Below, piece by piece: positions 1,901-13,325 of a stretch of 64,000 nucleotides of DNA; the stretch's first letter is position 1, and each line of letters opens with the position of its first letter. Source of the DNA: Candidatus Multivoradales bacterium (GTDB taxonomy: Bacteria > Acidobacteriota > Thermoanaerobaculia > Multivoradales > JAHEKO01); assembly GCA_965223855.1 (NCBI GenBank), contig CBDCXM010000009.1, positions 2,432,001 to 2,496,000 of the forward strand, given 5' to 3'. A model generated the notes under the pieces. That model did not search any database. It was not told the DNA's origin and saw only the letters and a program-made list of their open reading frames with translations. A program made the translations under genes and the position numbers.

Positions 1901-3724
1901 TCATCGTTCGTCAGCCCGCCGCGTCCGCGTGTTGGAGTCGGTCCTCCCGTCCTCGTAGAGGCCGGTCACGCCCGTGACGGCTCCCGACTCGTCGGTCTCG
2001 AAACGCAGCCGGAAGAAGTCGGCGCTCCGCAGGACGAAGGTGTCGGGTGCGAGGGCGAAGAGCTCGGCGTAGTCCTCCGGTCGTGTGGCATCGCGGCCGT
2101 AGAAGAGGCGGCCGTCTCTGAGTTCCACCCGGCGGACTTCGTACTCGCCGGCGAACCTCTCGAGTCGCGCCGGGTCGACCTCGACGGGCCGATGGAGTGC
2201 ACGCAGCCACGCATGGAACCAATCGAGCTCACCCTCGCGCTCGCCCGATCCGAGCGCCGCCTCCAGGCTGCGGAGGGCCGCTTCGCCGCCGAAATGATCG
2301 AGAGAGAACCGCACTTCCTCCCGGATCGCTTCGATCGATTCGGGGAAGAGCTCCCGTCGCCACGCGAAGACCTCCAGCGCCTCCTGTGGCGACCGCTCCC
2401 GAGCGACGATGGTCGCGGCCCAGCGGAAGGACTCCTCGTCCTCCAGGCCTTCGAGAGCCCCCGAATCTCCCACCTCGCGCCAGTACTTGCGGCCGGCCTC
2501 GACCCCTGCGGCGGCGAGGGTATTGAGCCACTGCTGCCAGGGAGCATCCCAGGCGCGGTAGCCGAGGTAGTCGAACGGCGACGACCGATCTCCGGTCAGA
2601 AGGGCAACGACGTCTGCCGCGATGCCCTCGAGCCGCTGGCTGTTGCCCATCAGGACGACCGCGACGCGAGGCTCGAGGAAGGCGATCGAGTAGTTGGCGC
2701 TGCCGACGTCGTTGCCGGTATGGAAGATGGCGGGACCGAACGGAGTTTCGACGTACCCCCATCCCAGGGTCCAGCCGAGCCCGGTCGCTTCGTGCTCCGA
2801 CGTCGTCTCGACAGCGAGGGGGCCGAACATCCGACGATGGCGCACCTGGACCTGGCGGGACACCAGGCCTCGCCGGGCAGTGTCCGACAGTCCCTCGCCC
2901 GTCAGGACCGCGCGGAGGAACCGTGCGTAGTCGACGGCCGTCGTCTGTAGCGATCCCGCGGCCTGCGGTTCGTCGCGACGTTCCCGTCGGAGCGGTCGCC
3001 CCGCGAGGTCGTGATCTTCGGCGTAGTCGGTTTCGAACCGCTCCTGCCAGACCATGCTCGACCGCTTCATGCCGAGGGGCGCGAAGACCTCCTCCTGGGC
3101 AAGCTCCTCGAAGCCCTTGCCGGTGTGCTCTTCGATCGCCAGCTGCAGGAAGGCGAAGCCCTCACCCGAGTAGCTGTGGCGCTCTCCCGGCTCGTAGAGA
3201 AAGCTCAGCCGGTCTTCAGGCGTGAACCAGCGCCAGTTCGGCCAGCCGGTGGTGTGCGTCAGGACGTGGCGGGCGGTGAGCGCCCGATGCCGCTCGTCGC
3301 CCTCGAGATCGGTGTAGAAATCGTAGGTCGGCAGCGAGGCAGGCAGAAGTTCGGCCAGCGGGCGGTCGAGGTCGAGCCTTCCCTGATCGACGAGCCTCAT
3401 GGCGAGGTACGCGGTGATCGTCTTGCTGAACGAGAGCCCGGCGAACGACGTCGCCTCGGTGAGCGGACGGTGGTCCCTCACGTCGCGGACGCCGTAGTTC
3501 TCCTGGAGGACGAGCTCGCCGTCGTGGAGGACGGCGATCGCCATGCCGGGCAAGCGGACGGCTTCCATCCAACCCGCGATCCGGGTCTCGATCTCCGCGG
3601 CCGAGACCGTCGAGCCGTCGAGCCGGACGAGGTCGGGCTCGTCTTCGGCGTCGACCGGCCGGGCTGGAAGAGAAACGGTGAGAAGGACGATTGCGATTCC
3701 GCGCCACCAGGGTCGGGCTGCCAT
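1901..3724 (-). CDS. Secreted serine hydrolase (beta-lactamase/PBP-like family) with helical TPR-like region and C-terminal beta domain
   Basis: SxxK (SFSK), LTHTTG, PGERHSYSGEG, HTG motifs; signal peptide MAARPWWRGIAIVLLTVSLPA. Confidence 0.85.
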   Translation of the reverse strand: MAARPWWRGIAIVLLTVSLPARPVDAEDEPDLVRLDGSTVSAAEIETRIAGWMEAVRLPGMAIAVLHDGELVLQENYGVRDVRDHRPLTEATSFAGLSFSKTITAYLAMRLVDQGRLDLDRPLAELLPASLPTYDFYTDLEGDERHRALTARHVLTHTTGWPNWRWFTPEDRLSFLYEPGERHSYSGEGFAFLQLAIEEHTGKGFEELAQEEVFAPLGMKRSSMVWQERFETDYAEDHDLAGRPLRRERRDEPQAAGSLQTTAVDYARFLRAVLTGEGLSDTARRGLVSRQVQVRHRRMFGPLAVETTSEHEATGLGWTLGWGYVETPFGPAIFHTGNDVGSANYSIAFLEPRVAVVLMGNSQRLEGIAADVVALLTGDRSSPFDYLGYRAWDAPWQQWLNTLAAAGVEAGRKYWREVGDSGALEGLEDEESFRWAATIVARERSPQEALEVFAWRRELFPESIEAIREEVRFSLDHFGGEAALRSLEAALGSGEREGELDWFHAWLRALHRPVEVDPARLERFAGEYEVRRVELRDGRLFYGRDATRPEDYAELFALAPDTFVLRSADFFRLRFETDESGAVTGVTGLYEDGRTDSNTRTRRADER

Positions 3725-3829
3725 GGCCCGAGGATATCCAAGCGCCTCCCCGAACGCGGTCTCCTGGAATCCGGGCGACGCGGCCGGCGTTGCGAACCTC
3801 GAGGTCTCTCCATACCCTGGGAGGTGATG

Positions 3830-5371
3830 ATGCGTCGGCGACTCTTCGTGGTGTCCGCTCTTGTGCTTGCCGTCTCGTTCACTGTGGCGGGTGCCTTCGG
3901 CCCGTCCCCGACGGGCCCGCACGACGCCCTGGTCGAGGGACTCGAGAAGCCGGATCCTGAGGCCTATTGGCTACCTCGCCACAGGGCGGCTCTGCTCGAG
4001 GATCCACTGCTGTTCCCGCGTCGGGCGTCGGCGACGGACGCCGCCGGGGCACCGCTGCGGTTCCGCAACAAGAGGCGTGTCAGCACCGACCTGCTCGAGC
4101 CGCCCTCCGCGGTACTGCCGACCGCCCAGGCGGAGGCGCAGACGGAGCCGTATGTCGCCGTCAATCCCGAGAATCCCCTCCACCTGGTGGCCGGTTGGCA
4201 GGAGGATCGCTTCTCGGACGGCGGTGCCCGTGCACTGGGCGTCGCGGTTTCGCTCGACGGCGGTCGGCGCTGGACCGATGCGCTCGTACCCGGGTTGACG
4301 ATCGCCTCCGGCGGCACCTGGTCGCGGGCGTCGGATCCGTGGCCTGCTTTCGGACCGGGAGGCGTCGTCTACTTCAACAGCCTGCTCTTCGAGCCCGGCC
4401 TTCCCAACGACAACGCGATCGCGGTCAGCATCTCCGAGGACGGCGGTTTCACCTGGGGGCCGCCGGTGGAGGTGGTCAGGGATCCTCTCGACTTTCACGA
4501 CAAGAACTCGATGGTGGTCGACACGGTCTCGACCGGTCCCCACCGGGGCAACGCGTATGTCGCCTGGGACATCAACCTGTTCCGCGGCGGCCGGTACGTC
4601 GCTCAGCGGCTGGTGGTGGCGCGATCGACGGACGGCGGCCGCAGCTGGAGCCGGCCGCGGAGGGTGGCGCAGGGGCCGACCAACATCGGCGTCGTCCTGC
4701 GCGTCGGCTCCGACGGCACGGTCTACGCCGTCTGGGCGGCGGCGTTGCCGGGTGCGCCGACTCTGTCGCTGCGTTTCGCCAGCAGCACCAACGGCGGCCG
4801 GCGCTTCAGCAGCCCGCGCAAGATCGCCGACATGCTGCCGATCGGCGTCGAAGGGTGGCGATCCGGAGCGATCCTCCCTTCGCTGGCGATCGATCCGCTG
4901 ACCCAAGACCTCTACGTTGCCTGGGCCGATGCCCGGTTCACCGGTACCGACCAGGCGACGGTCGTGGTGTCGCGCGACGGCGGTGCCAGCTGGACGGCGC
5001 CGATGCGGGTGAGCCGCGGTCCCGACGCCAGTCCGGCGATGACGGTCAGCGTGACGACCAACGGTGCGGGCGAAGCTCTGGTCGGCTACTACACGATTCG
5101 CAACGTCGTCGGGCGCCCGACCTTCGCCGACTACTTCGTCACCCGGTCGCGCAACCGCGGAGAATCGTTCGGGCCGCGCGTGCGGGTGAGCCGACCGTCG
5201 TTCGATGCCGGTCAGGCGGCGAGGGCCGCCCAGGGGGCCTTCTTCCTCGGTGACTACGTCGGCCTCACCGGTACGGACGACGGTTTCGTCGCGGTCTTCA
5301 CGGCTGCGTTCGCGCCCTCCCGGCTGGGACCGGGGCGGCAGGCCGACGTGTTCGCCGTGGTTTCGCGCTGA
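3830..5371 (+). CDS. Secreted sialidase-like BNR/Asp-box beta-propeller protein
   Basis: GGAGG before ATG; signal peptide; repeated Asp-boxes SLDGGRRW, SEDGGFTW, STDGGRSW, STNGGRRF, SRDGGASW; C-terminal FLGDYVGL. Confidence 0.8.
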   Translation: MRRRLFVVSALVLAVSFTVAGAFGPSPTGPHDALVEGLEKPDPEAYWLPRHRAALLEDPLLFPRRASATDAAGAPLRFRNKRRVSTDLLEPPSAVLPTAQAEAQTEPYVAVNPENPLHLVAGWQEDRFSDGGARALGVAVSLDGGRRWTDALVPGLTIASGGTWSRASDPWPAFGPGGVVYFNSLLFEPGLPNDNAIAVSISEDGGFTWGPPVEVVRDPLDFHDKNSMVVDTVSTGPHRGNAYVAWDINLFRGGRYVAQRLVVARSTDGGRSWSRPRRVAQGPTNIGVVLRVGSDGTVYAVWAAALPGAPTLSLRFASSTNGGRRFSSPRKIADMLPIGVEGWRSGAILPSLAIDPLTQDLYVAWADARFTGTDQATVVVSRDGGASWTAPMRVSRGPDASPAMTVSVTTNGAGEALVGYYTIRNVVGRPTFADYFVTRSRNRGESFGPRVRVSRPSFDAGQAARAAQGAFFLGDYVGLTGTDDGFVAVFTAAFAPSRLGPGRQADVFAVVSR

Positions 5372-5556: not shown

Positions 5557-8460
5557 GTGGAGGCGGCGGGATCGAACTGGTCACGACTGTGCCGACGCCT
5601 GGGGGTGACCGTCTACCGAGGCGAGGGCCGGGCGGCACTACTGCTCTTCTTCTCGTTCTTCCTCTGCCTGACATTCCAGTACGCCGCCAAGACGGTCCGT
5701 CAGGCGACCTTCGTCGACAGCCTCGGTGCCGCGCAGCTTCCGTGGGTCTATCTCATGGTGGCCGTCGTCTCCTACCCGGCGGCGTGGCTGATCGCTCACT
5801 TCTCCCGTGTCGCTTCGCTCCGGAAGGTGGCGATCTCGTCCTTCTCGATCGTCGCGCTCAGCCTGCTCGGCTTCTGGTGGCTGTTCGGCCTCGGGTCCAA
5901 CTGGGTGCCGGTGGCGTTCTACGTCTGGGTGTCGGTGGCGATCGCCGTGACGATGACCCAACTCTGGGGACTGGCGAGCGAGACCTTCGACGCCCGGCAG
6001 GCGAAGCGACTGTTCGGTTTCCTCGGTGGCGGTGCCCTGCTGGGCGGGATCGCCGGCGGCCTGGTGGCGCGCTTCGCCGCCGCGCAGGCGGCGCCGCGCG
6101 ATGCACTTCTGGTGGCGGCGGCGCTGCTCGTGGCGATCGCGCTCCTGCTCCCGCTGCTCGACAGGAAGCCGGTCGCGTCGCGATCCGCCGGACACGTGGT
6201 CGCCCGAGAGTCGAAGCGCAAGGGGTGGTCGCTGCTTCGACGCTCGCCCTACGTGCGCCTCATCGCCGCCGTCATGCTGCTGACCGTGGTGGTGTCGCAG
6301 GTCGTCGATCTGCAGTTCAACTGGGCGGTCGAGGTTTCCACCGGCAGCCTCGAGGATCGCACTGCGTTCTTCGGCAACTTCTTCAGCCTCATGGGCGTGG
6401 CGGCTCTGTTCTTCCAACTCTTCCTGACGACCCGCATTCACAAGGCTCTCGGCGTCGGCGTGGCGTTGAGAGTCCTTCCCGCCTCACTGGGTGCCGGCAC
6501 GCTGGCGCTGCTGATCACCGCTTCCGCGTTGCCGGGCAGCCTGCTGATCGCGGTCCTCGGGCTCAAGCTGATCGAGAGCGGCATGCGCTACTCGATCGAC
6601 GATTCGTCGCGCGAGCTCCTCTTCCTGCCGTTGACGCGCGACGATCGCGTCGAGGCCAAGGCGTTCGTCGACATCGTCGTCAAGCGCGGCGCGAAGGGGG
6701 TCGCGGCGATCGTGCTGCTCCCGGTCACCCTGGGCTGGCTCACACCCGTGAGTCTCGGCTGGCTTTCGCTGGCCGCCGTCGTCGTCTGGCTGTGGCTGGT
6801 CTCGCGGGTGGTCCGGGGATACGTCCGCAGCTTCCGTCGCGGCCTCGAGCGTCGCGAGATCGACCGTGGGGCGTTCATCGACCTCTCGGACGGCACGACA
6901 CTGGCACTGCTGGTGGAGTCGCTCGGCAGTCTCGACGGCCGCCAGGTCGTGCACAGCATCGACCTTCTCGCGGACCAGGGACACGCCAGGCTCGTGCCGC
7001 CGCTGCTGCTGTTCCACGACGATCCCGAGGTTCGTCTGAGGACTCTCCGCGTGCTGGCAGCCGAGGGGAGGAGCGACGCTCTGCCGCTGGTCGAGCGGCG
7101 GCTCGCTGACGACAGCCCGGAAGTGAGGGCCGAGGCGACCCGCGTGCTCGCGGAGATGAGGCACGAGGACGCCTGCGAGATGATGCTGCCGCGACTCGGC
7201 TCGCACGAGGTCGGGGTCAAGGCGGCGGCGATCGCCTGCCTGGCAACGCACGGTGACGGCGAGATGGCCTCGACCGCCGAGGAGACGCTCGAAGACCTGA
7301 TCTCCGAGGCGGAGGCCGAGGCGAGGATCGAGGCGGCGCGAGTCATCGGCGCTCTCTCCGAACAGCGCTTCGCCGGCCGGCTGGTCCTGCTGCTCTACGA
7401 CCCGGAGCCGGAGGTCGTGAGGGCAGCGATCGGAGCGATCCGGCGACGTTGCGAGCGCGACGGCCCCAACCCCCTCTACCTGCCGACGCTGATCTCGCTG
7501 CTGGCGAACCGGCGGCTCAAGCACGACGCACGGCAGGCGCTGGCGGCCTACGGAGCCGATGCCGTTCCGGCGCTCGTTCACATGATGGAAGAGCCGGACG
7601 AGCCGATCTGGGTCCGTCGGGCCATCCCGAAGACGATCGCGAGGATCGAAGATCCCGGCGCGCGGGAGGCGCTCCTTCAAGGGCTGGGGGTGCATACGGA
7701 CCCCTTCCTGCGACGAAAGCTCCTCGAGGCGCTCGCCTCGACCGGAAAGGCTCCTCTCGACTCGGTCGCCGCCCAGAGGGTTCGCAGCGAGATTCGCGTC
7801 GAGGCGAGGCGCTACCTTCTGATGCTGGCCGATCTCTACACTCTCGACCCCGGAGCCGCGGAGGAAGTGCATGCGCTGAGGATCGCCTCGCCGGTGCGGC
7901 TGCTCGATCGTCTCCTCGCGGAGCGGGCCGAGGACCACCGCCGCAATCTGTTCTTCCTGCTCTCCTTCCTCTACGAGCGGGAGTCGATCTGGAACGCGTT
8001 CCGCGGGCTCGGCGAGCCGTCGCTGCGGCCCAGTGCGCTCGAGTACCTCGACTACACCCTGGGCGGCGATGAACATCGTGACGTGCTCGCCGCGATCGGC
8101 GACGCGCCTCTGGTGGAGAAGTTGGGCCGCTCCGAGCGGACCTTCGGCATCGCGCGGGGCTCGAGGTCGGTGGTCGTCGCCAAGCACCTGTCCCCGCAGG
8201 ACGATGCGAAGGTCGATGCGCCCTTCCTGACGGTCGGGGCGATTCACGCGGTGGTCTCCGACCAGCTCATCGATCTGCTCCCGGTCGTCGAGTCGCTCCT
8301 CTCGACCGCCACCGACGACTTCGTGCTCGAGACCGCAACCTGGGCGCTCGGGACAGGAATGGCGCAGGGTCGTGCCGTCCGCATGCGGCAGGAAGGACCA
8401 CGGGAACCTCCGGGGACAGCCCCGGGGCGAGCCAGGCGGGAGGGCAGAGACCGGACATGA
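5557..8460 (+). CDS. NTT/TLC-like (Npt1/Npt2) nucleotide transporter MFS domain fused to HEAT repeats
   Basis: About 12 TM helices with family-like motifs (KTVRQATF, QLPWVY, FYVWVSV, W..ASETFDARQAKRLFG, RYSIDDSSRELLFLP, AKAFVD), followed by HEAT repeats (DDPEVRLRTLRVL, DDSPEVRAEATRVL, DPEPEVVRAAIGAI). Confidence 0.85.
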   Translation: MEAAGSNWSRLCRRLGVTVYRGEGRAALLLFFSFFLCLTFQYAAKTVRQATFVDSLGAAQLPWVYLMVAVVSYPAAWLIAHFSRVASLRKVAISSFSIVALSLLGFWWLFGLGSNWVPVAFYVWVSVAIAVTMTQLWGLASETFDARQAKRLFGFLGGGALLGGIAGGLVARFAAAQAAPRDALLVAAALLVAIALLLPLLDRKPVASRSAGHVVARESKRKGWSLLRRSPYVRLIAAVMLLTVVVSQVVDLQFNWAVEVSTGSLEDRTAFFGNFFSLMGVAALFFQLFLTTRIHKALGVGVALRVLPASLGAGTLALLITASALPGSLLIAVLGLKLIESGMRYSIDDSSRELLFLPLTRDDRVEAKAFVDIVVKRGAKGVAAIVLLPVTLGWLTPVSLGWLSLAAVVVWLWLVSRVVRGYVRSFRRGLERREIDRGAFIDLSDGTTLALLVESLGSLDGRQVVHSIDLLADQGHARLVPPLLLFHDDPEVRLRTLRVLAAEGRSDALPLVERRLADDSPEVRAEATRVLAEMRHEDACEMMLPRLGSHEVGVKAAAIACLATHGDGEMASTAEETLEDLISEAEAEARIEAARVIGALSEQRFAGRLVLLLYDPEPEVVRAAIGAIRRRCERDGPNPLYLPTLISLLANRRLKHDARQALAAYGADAVPALVHMMEEPDEPIWVRRAIPKTIARIEDPGAREALLQGLGVHTDPFLRRKLLEALASTGKAPLDSVAAQRVRSEIRVEARRYLLMLADLYTLDPGAAEEVHALRIASPVRLLDRLLAERAEDHRRNLFFLLSFLYERESIWNAFRGLGEPSLRPSALEYLDYTLGGDEHRDVLAAIGDAPLVEKLGRSERTFGIARGSRSVVVAKHLSPQDDAKVDAPFLTVGAIHAVVSDQLIDLLPVVESLLSTATDDFVLETATWALGTGMAQGRAVRMRQEGPREPPGTAPGRARREGRDRT

Positions 8461-8489
8461 GAGAGTCGAGTCGGCGAGTGGAGGTCGGA

Positions 8490-8933
8490 ATGACTGAGTT
8501 GGCGCGCATCGAGCGAGTCCTGCTGCTCCAGCGAGTGAAGCTGCTGGCTTCGTGCAGTGCGGACCAGATTCTGCGTATCTCCGGCATCACCAGCGAGGGC
8601 ACCTTCGAGGCGGGGGAGGTGATCTACGAGGCGGGCGAGCCGGCGAGGGCGCTCTATTTCGTCGAGCGCGGTACCGTGAGGCTCACGCCGGCGCGCCCCG
8701 GCGAGACCCTCGTGGGTCCGGCCCAGACGTTCGGGGTCGTGGAGATCCTGAGTGGTCGGATGCGCACCCGCACCGCGATGGCGGAGTCGGAGACCCGCGT
8801 CCTGGCGGTCAGTGCGGAAGACTTCTTCGATCTGCTCTCGAACAACATCGAGATCGTCAAGGCGCTCTTCCGCCAGCTCCTCGGTGAGCGGGCCGCGGAT
8901 ACCGACGCCGGAGAGACAGGGAGTAGCCGATGA
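8490..8933 (+). CDS. Stand-alone cyclic-nucleotide-binding-fold protein
   Basis: GGAGG before ATG 8490 (alternative start 8457 overlaps the upstream stop); FEAGEVIYEAGEPARALYFVERGTV...FGVVEILSGRMRTRTAMA; no HTH. Confidence 0.85.
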   Translation: MTELARIERVLLLQRVKLLASCSADQILRISGITSEGTFEAGEVIYEAGEPARALYFVERGTVRLTPARPGETLVGPAQTFGVVEILSGRMRTRTAMAESETRVLAVSAEDFFDLLSNNIEIVKALFRQLLGERAADTDAGETGSSR

Positions 8934-11047
8934 GACGAGTGACCGCGAGCGCTCTCGCCCTGATCTTCGTCGGGGCGATGGGCGCGAGCTCTCCGGCCGC
9001 CGCCAAGCGGGTGGTCGCGATCGGCGACGTCCATGGCAGCTTCGATGAGTTCACCGCCATCCTCCGTGCCGCCGAGCTGATCGACGAGGAGGGGCGCTGG
9101 AGTGGTGGTGAGTCGATCTTCGTGCAGACGGGGGATCTGCTTGACCGGGGGGTCGGAGTGCGGGCGGTGATGGATCTGCTGATGGCCCTCGAACCTCAGG
9201 CTGCCGCGGCCGGGGGGCGGATCGTCGGGCTGCTGGGCAATCACGAGGTGATGAACATGGTGGGCGTGCGGCGCGATGTCGCGATGCAGGGACAGTCGCC
9301 GGGTCCCGTCTACGCGACGTTCGCCGATAGCGACTCGAAGCGGCGACAACGGGAGGCGGCCGACGCCTGGAAGCGTTGGCAGGCCCGCTTCCCCGACTGC
9401 GCTCCGGGCAGCAGGAGGGAGTGGCTCGCCGCCCACCCGGAGGGGTACGTCGAGTACGCGACCGCCTTCACGGCGGAGGGGGCCTACGGCAGGTGGCTGC
9501 GTGAGCGCTCCGCGGTCGCCAGGGTCGGCGGGTCGATCTTCGCCCACGGTGGTCTCAGCCCTGAGCTGGCCGCGAGTGGAAAGGGCGGTTCCATCGAGGC
9601 GATCAACGATGCGGTGGCCGCCGAGCTGGCGCGCTGGGACGAGGATTTCGCCTTTCTGGTGGAGGCCGGCGTGGCGCTCGAGTTCAGCGAGTTGACCGAG
9701 GTCTCGTGCGCGCTCGAGCAGGTGCTCGCTCCCTCCGCGGCGGATCCCGGCAGCGGTGCCGATCGGGAGAGGTTCGCCGAGATCGACTCCCGATTCCCGT
9801 CTCCCTCCGGTTGGCTGTCGTTCTCCGGGGACGGTCCCCTCTGGTTTCGCGGCTATGCGAAGTGGGGAGACGAGAAGAGCGGTAGCGTCGATCGGCTGCT
9901 CGCCGCCTACGGGGCCGAGCGATTGGTCGCTGGGCACACGCCGCAGCCGGGGACCGTCGCCTCGCGCTTCGGAGGGAAGGTGTTTCTGATCGACACCGCT
10001 GTCGTCTACGGGGCGGAGGCGAAGGGGCGTCCGGCCGCCCTGGAGCTGATCGATGGCCGGGCATCGGCGATCTATCTCGACGGCACGGTGAGGCTCGACA
10101 TCGACGAGAGCACGCCTGACGCGGGATCGCCGACCGTCGAAGCCGTGCCGTTCCGCTGGTTGGGCGAAGAGGGAGAGGCGTTGCCGTTCGACGATGCCGA
10201 GGCCGTGCGGCAGTTCCTTTCGACTGCCGAGATCGTCTCGATCAGGGCACTTCCCGACGGCGTGACCAAACCGCGGCGGATGGCGATGGAGTCCGGAGGA
10301 GTGCGCGCCAGGGCGGTCTTCCGCTACGTCCACATCGAATCGCTGCGCAAGCGACTGTCGTCCGGCGAGTTCGTCATGTACTTCCGCGACAGCTACGTCA
10401 ACGAGGTGGCCGCCTACGAGCTGGCAGCGCTTTTCGGACTCGACAACATCCCGCCCGTCGTGCTGCGCGAGGTGAGCGGCCAGGAGGGATCGGTGCAGGC
10501 CTGGCTGGAACACTCGATGCGCGAGACCGACCGACGCCAAAGGGGACTCAAACCTCCGAATCAGCGCTACTACAACAACCAGTTCTACCAGATGCGGGTG
10601 TTCGACAACCTGATCCACAACATCGACCGCAACCAGGGCAACTTCCTGTTCGACGAGAACTGGAAGCTGTGGATGATCGATCACACGAGAGCCTTCGCGC
10701 GAGAGAAGAAGAAGCTCTGGGCGCCGGACGAGGTGATCGGTCTCACCCCGGAACTGTGGCGACGGTTGCAGGAAGTCAAGGACGAGGAGATCGTCGCGGC
10801 CCTCGATGCCTACCTCCCCGGACCCGAGCTGCGAGCCCTGCTCGCAAGACGGGAGCTGCTCGTCGAACTCATCCGTCGGAGAATCGCCGAGAGGGGCGAG
10901 GGACGTGTGCTCTTCGATCTCGATCCGGCGAAGCCGGAGGTCGTGGTCACGATCGAGGAACCGCCGCCGTTGCCGGAGGCGGATGTCGAGACCGGAGCCG
11001 AGGCTCAGGCGGGGGGCGAAGCGGAGGACAGTGAGGACGTGAACTAG
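8930..11047 (+). CDS. Exported metallophosphoesterase (Shewanella-like PPP phosphatase) fused to a C-terminal atypical kinase-like domain
   Basis: Signal peptide; GDVHG, GDLLDRG, GNHE, AHGG, GPLWFRG, AGHT, IDT; then AVFR, EVAAYEL..LFGLDNIPPVVLR, GSVQAW, FDNLIHNIDRNQGNFL, WMIDHTRAF (PI3K/PI4K-FAM20-HipA-like). Confidence 0.8.
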   Translation: MRRVTASALALIFVGAMGASSPAAAKRVVAIGDVHGSFDEFTAILRAAELIDEEGRWSGGESIFVQTGDLLDRGVGVRAVMDLLMALEPQAAAAGGRIVGLLGNHEVMNMVGVRRDVAMQGQSPGPVYATFADSDSKRRQREAADAWKRWQARFPDCAPGSRREWLAAHPEGYVEYATAFTAEGAYGRWLRERSAVARVGGSIFAHGGLSPELAASGKGGSIEAINDAVAAELARWDEDFAFLVEAGVALEFSELTEVSCALEQVLAPSAADPGSGADRERFAEIDSRFPSPSGWLSFSGDGPLWFRGYAKWGDEKSGSVDRLLAAYGAERLVAGHTPQPGTVASRFGGKVFLIDTAVVYGAEAKGRPAALELIDGRASAIYLDGTVRLDIDESTPDAGSPTVEAVPFRWLGEEGEALPFDDAEAVRQFLSTAEIVSIRALPDGVTKPRRMAMESGGVRARAVFRYVHIESLRKRLSSGEFVMYFRDSYVNEVAAYELAALFGLDNIPPVVLREVSGQEGSVQAWLEHSMRETDRRQRGLKPPNQRYYNNQFYQMRVFDNLIHNIDRNQGNFLFDENWKLWMIDHTRAFAREKKKLWAPDEVIGLTPELWRRLQEVKDEEIVAALDAYLPGPELRALLARRELLVELIRRRIAERGEGRVLFDLDPAKPEVVVTIEEPPPLPEADVETGAEAQAGGEAEDSEDVN

Positions 11048-12336
11048 CGGTCGGGCCGGCGGGACCGTCGGGGCAGCGCCTCGGCGCCGACCACGACCGG
11101 CCAGGCCGACACGGTTCCGGTCTCGAAGCCGTCGTCGAAGATGGCGCTGATCGAGAAGACTGCGAGCGTGTTGGGGAAGAACCCGGTCACGTAGAGGTGT
11201 CGGGCATCCGGGGAGCTGCGGACATCCGCCGGTGACGAGATTCCCGTGACACCGTCGACCCCCTCGCAGGTCAGCTTCGCCAGCTCGAGGCGTCCTGCCG
11301 CGGCGTCGATGCGAACCGCAGCGATGGCCTGATGAATACCCAGCGTGGCGAAGAGAGTCCTGTCGCTCGTGAAGCCCAGCTTGGCTGCTGGATCGGCCGC
11401 GTTGGGGGTACAGCCTCCCTGGGAGGGCGGATTGGGCAACTCGGCGAGCAGCTTCAGATCGCCGGTGGTCGGGTCGCGTGCGAGGAGAGTCAGCCAGTCG
11501 AATCCTTCGAGGAACGTCTGACTCGCGGCCACCACGAAGTGGCCGTCCGGACTGACGGCTACATCGGTGACCAGGTCGAGCCAGCCCGAGCTTGCGACCG
11601 CGTCTCCGAACGCCAGCGAGCCATCGGCCCCGCGCGCGAAGTGAATCACGCTGTCGTCGAGTACCGAAGCGACGTAGAGCGAACTGCCGTCCGGGGAGAG
11701 GTTCAGCCCGAGCGGAGCAGAGAGCCCGGTCACCCCGTCGACGCCGTCGACGACCGCCTCGAGGTACGTCAGCCTTCCCGAGGCCGAGCGTTCGAAGACC
11801 GCCACGGCGGAATCGCTGAGACCGGCCACGTAGAGGTGCCGGTCGTCAGGCGAGAGCACCAGATCCCGAGCACCGTCGAGTCCGTCGACGCCCCCGATCC
11901 CGTCGATCAGGGTCTGGTCGAGTTGGAGCAGCCCGGTCGACGGGTCGCGCTGCCACACACTCACCTGGTCCGACTGTGCCGAGGCGGCGTAGATTTGCAG
12001 GCCGTCGGAGGACACGGCGAGAGCGGCGACCAGCGCCAACGACGTGTCGAACGCCCGCTGGACGAAGGTGAGCAGCCCGGTCGACGGGTCCCGCTCGAAC
12101 ACCACCAGGGAGCGGCCGCTGGTGGCGGCGACGACAACGTGCCGTCCGTCGGGAGTGACCGCGACCTCGATCGGCTGCTGCAGGCCGGTGATTCCCGACG
12201 TTCCGTCCTCGAGGACCTGCAGGAAGCGGAGTGCGGCAGAGCCGCTCGCCGGAGCCGCCGCAGCGAGCAGGAAGCCGAGCAGCAGCGCAGGGACGAGGCG
12301 GCGGAGACCGTATCGGGCACGAGTGGGCGGGAGCAT
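11044..12336 (-). CDS. Secreted lactonase-type beta-propeller protein with IFDDGFETG..W tag near the C-terminus
   Basis: Signal peptide; repeated SPDGRHLYVA..DSAVAVFERD..TG.L blades and DGVDGVTGL repeats. Confidence 0.8.
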   Translation of the reverse strand: MLPPTRARYGLRRLVPALLLGFLLAAAAPASGSAALRFLQVLEDGTSGITGLQQPIEVAVTPDGRHVVVAATSGRSLVVFERDPSTGLLTFVQRAFDTSLALVAALAVSSDGLQIYAASAQSDQVSVWQRDPSTGLLQLDQTLIDGIGGVDGLDGARDLVLSPDDRHLYVAGLSDSAVAVFERSASGRLTYLEAVVDGVDGVTGLSAPLGLNLSPDGSSLYVASVLDDSVIHFARGADGSLAFGDAVASSGWLDLVTDVAVSPDGHFVVAASQTFLEGFDWLTLLARDPTTGDLKLLAELPNPPSQGGCTPNAADPAAKLGFTSDRTLFATLGIHQAIAAVRIDAAAGRLELAKLTCEGVDGVTGISSPADVRSSPDARHLYVTGFFPNTLAVFSISAIFDDGFETGTVSAWPVVVGAEALPRRSRRPDR

Positions 12337-12473
12337 GGTGGAGCAGATTCAGAGTCCGAGCCGGATCGCGAGGACTCTCCGGGTGAGTGCCTGCTGCGAG
12401 GCGAGAGGTTCAGAAGCTGGCGGTGCTCTCGGAGCAGCGACTATGCTGCTGCGAAACGTCGAGGGAGGTTGCC

Positions 12474-13325
12474 ATGGTGACAGTTCAACGGTGGATCCGC
12501 AGGGTTCTGAGCCCGGCCCGCGACCAGGCGCCGATCGGCTTCGCGCTGCTGCTGATGCTGCCGGCCGGCGGCGCTGTGGCCGACGAACGAGCTCTCGATC
12601 TTGCCGGCGCGCGGCTCGTCGATCTCACCTGGACGCTGGGCGAGGAGACCCTCTACTGGCCGACTTCGCCGTCGCGCTTCGAGCTGCAGGTGCTGGCGCA
12701 CGGTGAGACCGAGGCCGGCTTCTTCTACGCGGCGAACTCCTTCTGCACGCCCGAGCATGGCGGGACGCACCTCGACGCACCGATCCACTTCGCCAGGGAC
12801 CGTTGGACAGCGGAGGAGATCCCGGTCGAGCGACTGGCCGGCCCGCTGGTGGTGATCGACGTCAGCGAGGCGGCGGCTGAAGCGGAGGAGTACCTGCTCT
12901 CATCGGAAGACGTGAACCGCTACGAGGAGGCTCACGGCCGGATCGCTCCCGGTTCGATCGTCATGCTCCGCACCGGCTGGGACCGCTTCTGGCCCGAGGC
13001 CCGCGCCTATCTGGGCGATGACACGCCGGGCGACGCATCGAAGCTCAGGTTCCCCTCCTACGGCGTTGCCGCGGTGCAGCTCCTCGTCGAGCGGGGCGTC
13101 GCCGCGCTGGGTGTCGACACCGCCAGCATCGACCCCGGAAGCTCGACCGACTTCCCCGTCCATCGGCTGGCGAACGAGGCGAATCTCTACGGCCTCGAGA
13201 ACGTAGCCCGGCTGGGAGAGGTACCCGCCAGCGGCGCCTGGGTCTTCGCCCTGCCGACCAAGATCGAGGGCGGCTCGGGCGCGCCGGTCAGGATCGTCGC
13301 CGTGGTCGGCCGATCCACGCAGTAG
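12474..13325 (+). CDS. Cyclase family (kynurenine formamidase-like) metallohydrolase
   Basis: EHGGTHLDAPIHF, MLRTGW, GVDTASID, GLENV, GGSGAPVRIVA; GGAGG before ATG; possible signal peptide. Confidence 0.9.
   Translation: MVTVQRWIRRVLSPARDQAPIGFALLLMLPAGGAVADERALDLAGARLVDLTWTLGEETLYWPTSPSRFELQVLAHGETEAGFFYAANSFCTPEHGGTHLDAPIHFARDRWTAEEIPVERLAGPLVVIDVSEAAAEAEEYLLSSEDVNRYEEAHGRIAPGSIVMLRTGWDRFWPEARAYLGDDTPGDASKLRFPSYGVAAVQLLVERGVAALGVDTASIDPGSSTDFPVHRLANEANLYGLENVARLGEVPASGAWVFALPTKIEGGSGAPVRIVAVVGRSTQ

Follow-up and report, generated by a model that had tools for sequence, protein, structure and literature searches.

A translationally coupled operon joining an NTT-HEAT carrier and a cyclic-nucleotide-binding-fold protein to a predicted exported phosphatase/kinase-fold protein in Acidobacteriota: a candidate route of ATP supply to the periplasm

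The window analyzed here, a stretch of 64,000 nucleotides (G000:C9:2432001-2496000; coordinates are relative to the stretch, and G- and L-numbers denote genomes and loci), contains three co-directional open reading frames (ORFs) on the + strand, which encode an NTT/TLC-like carrier with a HEAT domain (gene 1, 5557-8460, 967 amino acids, GTG start), a stand-alone cyclic-nucleotide-binding-fold protein (cNBD; gene 2, 8457-8933, 158 amino acids), and a bifunctional protein of 705 amino acids that is predicted to be exported and in which a signal-peptide-like N-terminus is followed by a metallophosphatase part (MPE) and a kinase-fold domain (KIN) (gene 3, 8930-11047). Both junctions are ATGA start/stop overlaps, read directly in the sequence, where the carrier stop meets the cNBD start (8457-8460) and the cNBD stop meets the phosphatase-kinase start (8930-8933), and all three genes, not only the last two, are therefore translationally coupled. 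An earlier note on this DNA had described three closely coupled genes of one direction with the ATGA at 8930-8933, which is confirmed at the exact coordinates, and the overlap at 8457-8460 is added here. The three genes are best explained as a single translationally coupled operon that forms part of a conserved Acidobacteriota cell-envelope module. The G+C content of the region (∼69%) matches that of its surroundings, and a simple promoter and terminator scan returned nothing above shuffled sequences.

Gene 1 belongs to the Pfam family TLC (PF03219; 51.3 bits against a cut-off of 21, E 1.1e-13), and the solved ATP/ADP carriers NTT1 of Arabidopsis and Chlamydia match it at 1.2e-13 (9j3j) and 1.7e-13 (9j3n), with motifs common to the carrier and solved NTT1 along residues 116-440. 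Twelve hydrophobic segments are found by hydropathy between residues 22 and 416 (membrane domain, 5620-6804; segment limits approximate), and the stretches rich in lysine and arginine lie at the N-terminus, in the central loop (nine such residues), and just past segment 12, so that the HEAT domain of about 500 residues is placed in the cytoplasm. This HEAT solenoid (residues ∼452-931, 6910-8349) matches HEAT_2 in five stretches (99.7 bits, E 1.2e-28), has a mean column identity of 60% in the alignment of relatives (A2), and includes a marginal thirteenth hydrophobic segment (1.45 against a threshold of 1.4), which is taken to be an amphipathic helix. The homologous membrane domain with its 12 helices is what the carrier has in common with the plastid and chlamydial ATP/ADP translocases; it differs from them by the long cytoplasmic HEAT extension and by its strong divergence (48.7 bits against a cut-off of 387.2 for TIGR00769, the model of canonical NTP/NDP exchange transporters), and by sequence it is a distant NTT branch and not a canonical exchanger. 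Taken together, a TLC domain, a C-terminal HEAT domain, and an adjacent cNBD gene with a four-base overlap constitute the NTT-HEAT(-cNBD) architecture of Major et al. (2017), an assignment made by architecture, without a tree. In that publication, the TLC domain is likewise fused to HEAT repeats, with the cNMP-binding protein either fused or encoded a few bases downstream, and the NTT-HEAT and cNMP-binding genes were proposed to form one operon (PMC5381601).

Gene 2 matches cNMP_binding (PF00027) with 61 bits against a cut-off of 27.5 (E 1.1e-16), among solved structures the cAMP-binding domain of MloK1 comes closest (5.5e-11), and hydropathy reveals no hydrophobic segment, at the N-terminus or elsewhere. 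At least 90% of 19 cNBD orthologues retain the arginine of the phosphate-binding cassette, and the cassette glutamate after FG is replaced (FGV in the window protein, varied in relatives), which makes the ligand uncertain; cyclic-nucleotide signalling is plausible, since one class III cyclase domain was identified in the source genome, alongside 11 matches to the cNMP-binding domain. A complex model of the HEAT domain with the cNBD protein (alignments A2 and A3) scored 0.63, where the best of three controls scored 0.00 and where the mark applied to such scores (116 of 157 solved complexes attain it, against 2 of 215 mismatched pairs) is a rough guide, own alignments having been used. The model runs agree in at least 68% of contacts, the partner pLDDT is at least 76, and the modelled interface uses invariant residues of both the HEAT domain (W234, R237, L331, L335, E474, T475, and W478) and the cNBD (I18 and E19). 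The model supports, without showing it, docking of the cNBD protein on the HEAT domain, in agreement with the natural NTT-HEAT-cNBD fusions that occur, for example, in G006 and that are also described in the accessible text of PMC5381601.

The N-terminus of gene 3 (8930-9004) consists of MRR, a hydrophobic core of 16 residues, and AAA followed by K (cleavage site placed by eye), with a hydropathy of 2.01 over residues 4-18, and it has the features of a Sec signal both by a heuristic and by eye. A basic stretch, a hydrophobic core, and a small-residue site, again judged by eye, precede the first domain in 23 of the 24 MPE/KIN ORFs of relatives, and the remaining one runs off its contig. A strict version of the signal heuristic passes 103 of 140 KIN representatives that start with methionine and none of the controls (0 of 19 cNBD and 0 of 21 HEAT sequences); most sequences that fail either begin within the domain or have a hydrophobic stretch that no lysine or arginine precedes, and both cases look like mis-called starts. 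The earlier note had taken the gene 3 product to be exported, and the signal-peptide-like N-termini of gene 3 and its relatives likewise suggest a protein that leaves the cytoplasm. Two other signal types were considered for gene 3 and rejected, namely a Tat signal, of whose consensus only the RR is present by eye, and a lipoprotein signal, as there is no cysteine.

The phosphatase half of gene 3 (9005-10129) matches Metallophos with 45.2 bits against a cut-off of 21.5, and residues ∼26-400 match the cold-active protein-tyrosine phosphatase of Shewanella (2z72, 6.9e-29; 1v73 and 2zbm, up to 1.6e-28). The GDxHG, GDxxDRG, GNHE, and HGG motifs and a late histidine are invariant in 15 of 15 aligned sequences, and the domain is a member of the Shewanella-like (SLP, or Shelph) group of PPP phosphatases. 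All PPP motifs are thus kept, and the differences from the Shewanella enzyme are inserts (∼400 against 342 residues) and the fusion to a kinase-fold domain.

The kinase-fold half (10130-11002), with a DRNxGN catalytic loop and IDH(T)R replacing DFG, was studied through a profile (A1) made from 23 KIN domains, i.e., residues ∼400-690 of gene 3 and its relatives. The best solved relatives of this profile in the PDB are the Fam20 kinases, with FAM20A at 8e-14, FAM20C at 3.9e-11 and 8.7e-11, FAM20B at 3.3e-8, and a nematode Fam20 at 2.6e-6, and PI4K type II ranks behind them at 1.8e-5. None of the Pfam models reaches its cut-off, with PI3_PI4_kinase (PF00454) at 22.7 bits for the whole protein and 24.9 bits for the domain alone (cut-off 27.1), Fam20C (PF06702) at 18.5 bits (cut-off 26.8), and HipA_2 at 15.2 bits (cut-off 27); similarly, 22 of the 23 family members give a sub-threshold or borderline PI3_PI4_kinase match, and 20 of the 23 match Fam20C only at E up to 1. 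Since no Pfam cut-off is reached and A1 finds FAM20 ahead of PI4K type II, KIN appears to represent a bacterial branch, so far without a name, of the Fam20/PI4K-II/HipA-like kinase group. The likeness to PI4K type II (4hnd and 4wtv), a cytosolic lipid kinase, extends over the aligned catalytic-loop region, and that to the SCO1664 family (TIGR03843) is weak and lies over the KIN C-lobe (3.5e-14; 52.8 bits against a cut-off of 172.4), so that KIN is not a member of the latter. In 1.84 billion proteins, A1 matched 8336 cluster representatives with E no higher than 0.001 and 1052 with E no higher than 1e-30, and the weaker matches probably include other kinase families. These matches indicate a large family without a Pfam model, consisting of bacterial, predicted exported kinase-fold proteins related to the Fam20 secretory kinases. 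The domain labels of the earlier note hold, with TLC, HEAT_2, cNMP_binding, and Metallophos above their Pfam cut-offs and PI3_PI4_kinase below its own, and they can be sharpened to a Shewanella-like phosphatase and to a kinase-like domain nearest the FAM20 secretory kinases and PI4K type II. At one locus (L023:10623-11702, + strand), a stand-alone KIN keeps a remnant of the first phosphatase motif, VLAIGDSHSG, after its signal peptide, as though a fused ancestor had lost its phosphatase domain.

The aspartate of the KIN catalytic loop (DRN) and that of IDH(T)R are kept in 150 of the 150 best KIN representatives and align with NMDRHH and LDN(A/G)RGF of FAM20; the loop asparagine is kept in 146 of the 150 and the following arginine in 148. 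At the position of the FAM20 ATP-binding lysine (FKP), the same 150 have arginine in 99, histidine in 38, and lysine in 6, and 7 have none of these, 4 of them with a lysine two residues earlier on the same strand. From these counts a basic residue appears to be selected at this position and is rarely lysine. Replacement of this lysine by arginine inactivates classical protein kinases. Judged by its conservation, KIN does not look like a decayed pseudokinase, and its chemistry may be atypical. In comparison with the Fam20 kinases (FAM20C, FAM20A, and FAM20B; 5yh3, 5wrr, and 5xom), the catalytic loop is aligned (DRN in KIN, DRH in Fam20), the DFG-like aspartate is common to both, and both carry a signal peptide and function outside the cytosol (for KIN, by prediction), whereas KIN is bacterial, much smaller, often fused to a phosphatase, below the Pfam cut-off, and provided with arginine or histidine in place of the FKP lysine.

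The linkage of these genes was followed in several sets of genomes, in which related genomes are not independent samples and no count amounts to a statistical test. Among the 24 genomes of the same family besides that of the window (G000), the carrier adjoins MPE and/or KIN in 16 (G001-G004, G006, G008, G010, G011, G014-G016, G019-G021, G023, and G024); three others (G007, G009, and G013) have a contig that breaks off at the carrier or just past the cNBD gene, and in G005, G012, G017, G018, and G022 neither the carrier nor MPE/KIN was found with the queries used, the unpublished genome G005 giving only a weak phosphatase-like match (3.9e-6). Within the family, the cassette occurs with a tandem duplication of the carrier (G008, G019, and G024), with MPE and KIN fused or split, with one to three extra KIN genes, and with a fusion of cNBD and carrier (G006). 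In G029, a genome of another family, the cNBD gene is linked to MPE and KIN genes for predicted exported enzymes rather than to the carrier. A phylum sample of 151 genomes (including G000 and the unpublished G087, which is NTT-positive and KIN-negative and by itself carries no claim; NTT-like genes counted at E up to 1e-20 and KIN at E up to 1e-15) contains 60 NTT-like-positive and 37 KIN-positive genomes, and all but one of the latter (36 of 37) also have an NTT-like gene, compared with 24 of the 114 genomes that lack KIN. KIN and NTT-like genes are no more than 10 kb apart in 15 of the KIN-positive genomes, which represent 10 families (G000, G015, G019, G041, G042, G071, G084, G092, G097, G110, G129, G141, G145, G147, and G173) and show same-strand, divergent, and convergent arrangements, where a rough estimate from copy numbers would allow such proximity by chance in about 1 genome in 37.

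Public species-representative genomes yielded 333 stretches coding for a KIN relative, and for 36 of the best 77 of these loci the fetched flank contains a carrier. The membrane domain is present in 32 of the 36, and the other 4 show HEAT alone where a contig ends; searching the 77 with a more sensitive profile of that domain added no carrier. Gene orders at these public loci are carrier-cNBD-MPE/KIN, MPE(-KIN)-carrier (in some cases with a convergent KIN), KIN-carrier, and pairs of divergent genes. Four genomes with labels of other phyla were also examined, although labels of metagenome-assembled genomes may be imprecise; adjacency was found in two of them, labelled Desulfobacterales and Deltaproteobacteria, and of the other two, one has both genes apart and one is without a carrier match. 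The Desulfobacterales-labelled locus (L060:470-5515, + strand) contains a DUF3089 gene, KIN, a TLC-like carrier without HEAT (445 amino acids), and then an MFS_2 transporter. Because it recurs in many other genomes, the gene arrangement is more than chance, and the linkage on which the earlier note had built proves to be conserved in the same family, in the phylum sample, and at the best public loci.

The surroundings of the carriers provide further context, for which 14 additional carrier loci were annotated. Signal-bearing Metallophos genes adjoin NTT-HEAT genes without KIN in G109, G049, and G095 and with KIN in G145 and G084. In G084, a low-GC acidobacterial genome, five KIN genes, each for 274-276 amino acids, stand in tandem after a signal-bearing Metallophos gene (L123:7365-12881, + strand), and this string is divergent from the NTT-HEAT gene, which adjoins an FHA-GAF-SpoIIE phosphatase gene. 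In G043, a signal-bearing protein of 990 amino acids encoded directly after NTT-HEAT and cNBD (L115:9095-12067, + strand) has a PEP-synthase-like ATP-grasp domain as its C-terminal part (PPDK_N 3.3e-26; PDB 8a8e 1.2e-16); its full-length relatives in G077, G071, G097, G060, and G141 are not adjacent to a carrier, and adjacency is limited to G043. A second signal-bearing protein without an assigned family follows there (L115, 12078-13439). Another signal-bearing family (A4; ∼540 amino acids), which has no Pfam match and an invariant HDDSRxxN...DFGS-like motif (e.g., L120:2219-3820, - strand, and L112:4617-6251, + strand), is present in 28 genomes and lies within 8 kb of NTT-like genes at nine places, distributed over 7 of them (G049, G066, G079, G095, G121, G124, and G177). 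A profile-profile comparison of A4 with A1 was not significant (probability 0.27%, E 0.23), and the A4 profile had no match in the PDB; a kinase-like nature of this family is a lead, not a finding, suggested by the motif seen by eye, a weak HipA_2 match (E 0.021), and atlas neighbours at only 0.79-0.81. An Omp85-family gene was seen in the NTT-HEAT gene string of G095.

A mechanism that would accommodate the operon starts with gene 1 as an inner-membrane NTT/TLC carrier of 12 helices with both ends in the cytoplasm, whose HEAT solenoid would dock the cNBD protein so that a nucleotide signal in the cytoplasm might control the gating of the carrier through the HEAT/cNBD unit. The Sec pathway would export gene 3 and thereby place phosphatase and kinase-fold enzymes outside the cytoplasmic membrane, where the carrier would deliver adenine nucleotide outward, as ATP in exchange for ADP and perhaps inorganic phosphate (Pi). 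The exported KIN would use that ATP to phosphorylate a substrate in the envelope, the fused Shewanella-like phosphatase would reverse the phosphorylation, and the cycle of kinase and phosphatase outside the membrane would yield ADP and Pi. ADP and Pi are the counter-substrates of class I NTT exchange. The direction proposed is the opposite of that in the parasites, where NTT1 carriers mediate net import, and the host here is presumably a free-living bacterium. Such a supply of ATP is the best explanation of the operon, held tentatively and with a confidence that stops a little short of even. Because three different exported families recur beside NTT-like carriers, a shared need for nucleotide is the simplest explanation of the neighborhoods.

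A number of observations weigh against ATP supply. The carrier stays far below the score of canonical exchangers; the function of the NTT-HEAT and cNBD pair was given as unknown, with no NTT-HEAT substrate known, in the accessible text of PMC5381601; and arginine or histidine at the lysine position means that KIN chemistry may be atypical or not phosphotransfer. No KIN lies within 10 kb of an NTT-like match in 22 of the 37 KIN-positive genomes of the phylum sample, no carrier was found in the flank of 41 of the best 77 public KIN loci, and in G029 the cNBD-MPE-KIN genes and NTT-HEAT are on different contigs (L028 and L029). Carriers also occur without kinases, as in the 24 KIN-negative genomes with an NTT-like gene, 7 of which have a full-length NTT-HEAT (G043, G049, G087, G101, G109, G127, and G152). 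In addition, histidine kinases with PAS/GAF domains and single-domain response regulators flank NTT-HEAT(-cNBD) in 5 of the 14 annotated loci (G101, G049, G095, G079, and G167; L111, L112, L120, L121, and L117), and such two-component neighbors fit a signalling role as well as a supply role. Finally, porins in the outer membrane would be expected to let ATP leak out once it had reached the periplasm. The ATP-supply interpretation of the earlier note is thus partly supported: the conserved linkage and the signal-like N-termini speak for it, while the substitution of the lysine, the carriers without kinases, and the two-component neighbors point elsewhere. The same substitution and the same neighbors, together with carriers that lack KIN and KIN genes far from carriers, keep three other explanations alive.

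The strongest of these, although unlikely, is that the carrier serves uptake rather than supply, importing a nucleotide or a phosphorylated compound that the exported enzymes produce, trim, or capture for scavenging or sensing. All characterized NTTs import nucleotides into their own cell or organelle, according to the accessible text of PMC5381601, the signal-bearing Metallophos genes adjoin NTT-HEAT even in the three genomes without an accompanying KIN, and the phosphatase half has a weak likeness to the dinucleoside tetraphosphatase ApaH (6.9e-5, far under the cut-off). A kinase fold with its aspartates kept throughout the 150 representatives, however, has no obvious role in scavenging and would need a phosphate donor outside the cell, the removal of phosphate would counteract a carrier of phosphorylated substrates, and the nearest solved relative of the phosphatase is a protein-tyrosine phosphatase and not a nucleotidase.

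Somewhat less probable again is trans-envelope signalling, in which an NTT-like sensor or transceptor would be bound or modulated by the exported proteins as periplasmic ligand-binding partners, with the HEAT/cNBD unit relaying the signal to, for example, two-component proteins. The PAS histidine kinases and single-domain response regulators at 5 of the 14 loci and the FHA-GAF-SpoIIE phosphatase of G084 would suit such a relay, as would HEAT repeats in their capacity as protein-interaction scaffolds on which the cNBD docks in the model, and arginine or histidine at the KIN lysine position would fit a nucleotide-binding pseudoenzyme. The retention of the KIN aspartates, including the DFG-like one, of the loop asparagine, and of all PPP motifs argues instead for enzymes rather than mere binders, and the carrier keeps the NTT1 motifs across the aligned length.

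It is also conceivable, albeit improbable, that KIN draws on polyphosphate, pyrophosphate, or a lipid-linked phosphate, or catalyzes another nucleotide-dependent reaction, with the carrier moving a substrate or product and not the energy source. Known periplasmic phosphorylation avoids ATP, as the accessible text on LpxT describes phosphorylation from undecaprenyl pyrophosphate (PMC2229476), NTT relatives carry varied adenine-containing cofactors (from the reference list of PMC5381601), and the basic residue at the KIN lysine position is atypical. Set against this, the solved relatives that were found, FAM20 and PI4K type II, all use ATP, and three exported families with ATP-type folds or motifs occur beside NTT-like carriers. 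As far as the accessible texts go, LpxT and the periplasm-targeted ligase Lig E (bioRxiv 10.64898/2026.03.22.713542) are precedents for phosphoryl and nucleotidyl chemistry in the periplasm, but neither is linked to a nucleotide carrier, and the LpxT donor is a lipid pyrophosphate. A neighborhood without functional meaning, the genes being merely co-inherited in one lineage, is very improbable, since the evidence, although mostly from one phylum and from related genomes, includes adjacency that persists where gene order or strand has changed, where MPE and KIN have fused or separated, and where carrier and KIN genes have been duplicated, and that extends over 10 families in 15 genomes where the rough estimate expects about one.

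Extending ATP supply beyond this operon leads to a more general proposal, in which Acidobacteriota and some other bacteria would run an ATP-dependent phosphorylation in the periplasm, NTT carriers (ATP/ADP with or without Pi, gated by HEAT/cNBD) feeding Sec-exported kinases whose marks SLP phosphatases would remove. The kinases concerned would be of the Fam20/PI4K-II-like type, together with a second, DFG-bearing family. This wider proposal is possible and is advanced with somewhat more doubt than ATP supply at the operon itself. Fam20 kinases depend on ATP that an exchanger brings into the secretory lumen, and the periplasm is usually taught as ATP-free. If true, the proposal would provide a bacterial counterpart of the eukaryotic secretory-pathway kinases with their luminal ATP supply, as well as a function for the widespread NTT-HEAT family, and a carrier homologue linked to predicted exported enzymes with intact kinase and phosphatase motifs makes the assumption of an ATP-free periplasm directly testable.

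New in the present analysis are the conserved, predicted exported kinase-fold and phosphatase partners of the known NTT-HEAT/cNBD module. The linkage offers the first functional context for NTT-HEAT(-cNBD) proteins, which are found in cyanobacteria, Chlamydiae, oomycetes, and many free-living bacteria and to which no role has been assigned since their description in 2017. The accessible text of that description (Major, Embley, and Williams, 2017; PMC5381601), which used only three Acidobacteria sequences, does not contain the word kinase, names phosphatase only in the HEAT acronym and as PP2A, and includes no exported phosphatase partner. Similarly, in the accessible text of a review of Fam20 kinases (PMC7948968), bacterial relatives are not treated and the word bacteria appears only in the title of a reference. 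A literature search on periplasmic kinases and ATP, bacterial Fam20, Shewanella-like phosphatases, and NTT-HEAT, conducted mostly outside subscription journals, found no description of a linkage between the carrier and an exported kinase or phosphatase.

Near stand-alone KIN genes, about 20 of 97 loci (L013-L109; e.g., L050:1272-2447 on the - strand, L057, and L091) contain genes for membrane-anchored Hanks-type Ser/Thr kinases, which may be there by chance since Acidobacteriota have many such kinases. In the window itself, the operon is preceded by an ORF for a 673-amino-acid protein on the - strand (1901-3922) and one for a BNR-repeat protein with a likely later start (3011-5371), and it is followed by a seven-bladed lactonase-like propeller on the - strand (11044-12336), whose stop overlaps that of gene 3, and by a PF04199 "cyclase" family protein (12387-13325). 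Several of these flanking ORFs (1901-5371 and 11044-13325) have hydrophobic N-termini that suggest export.

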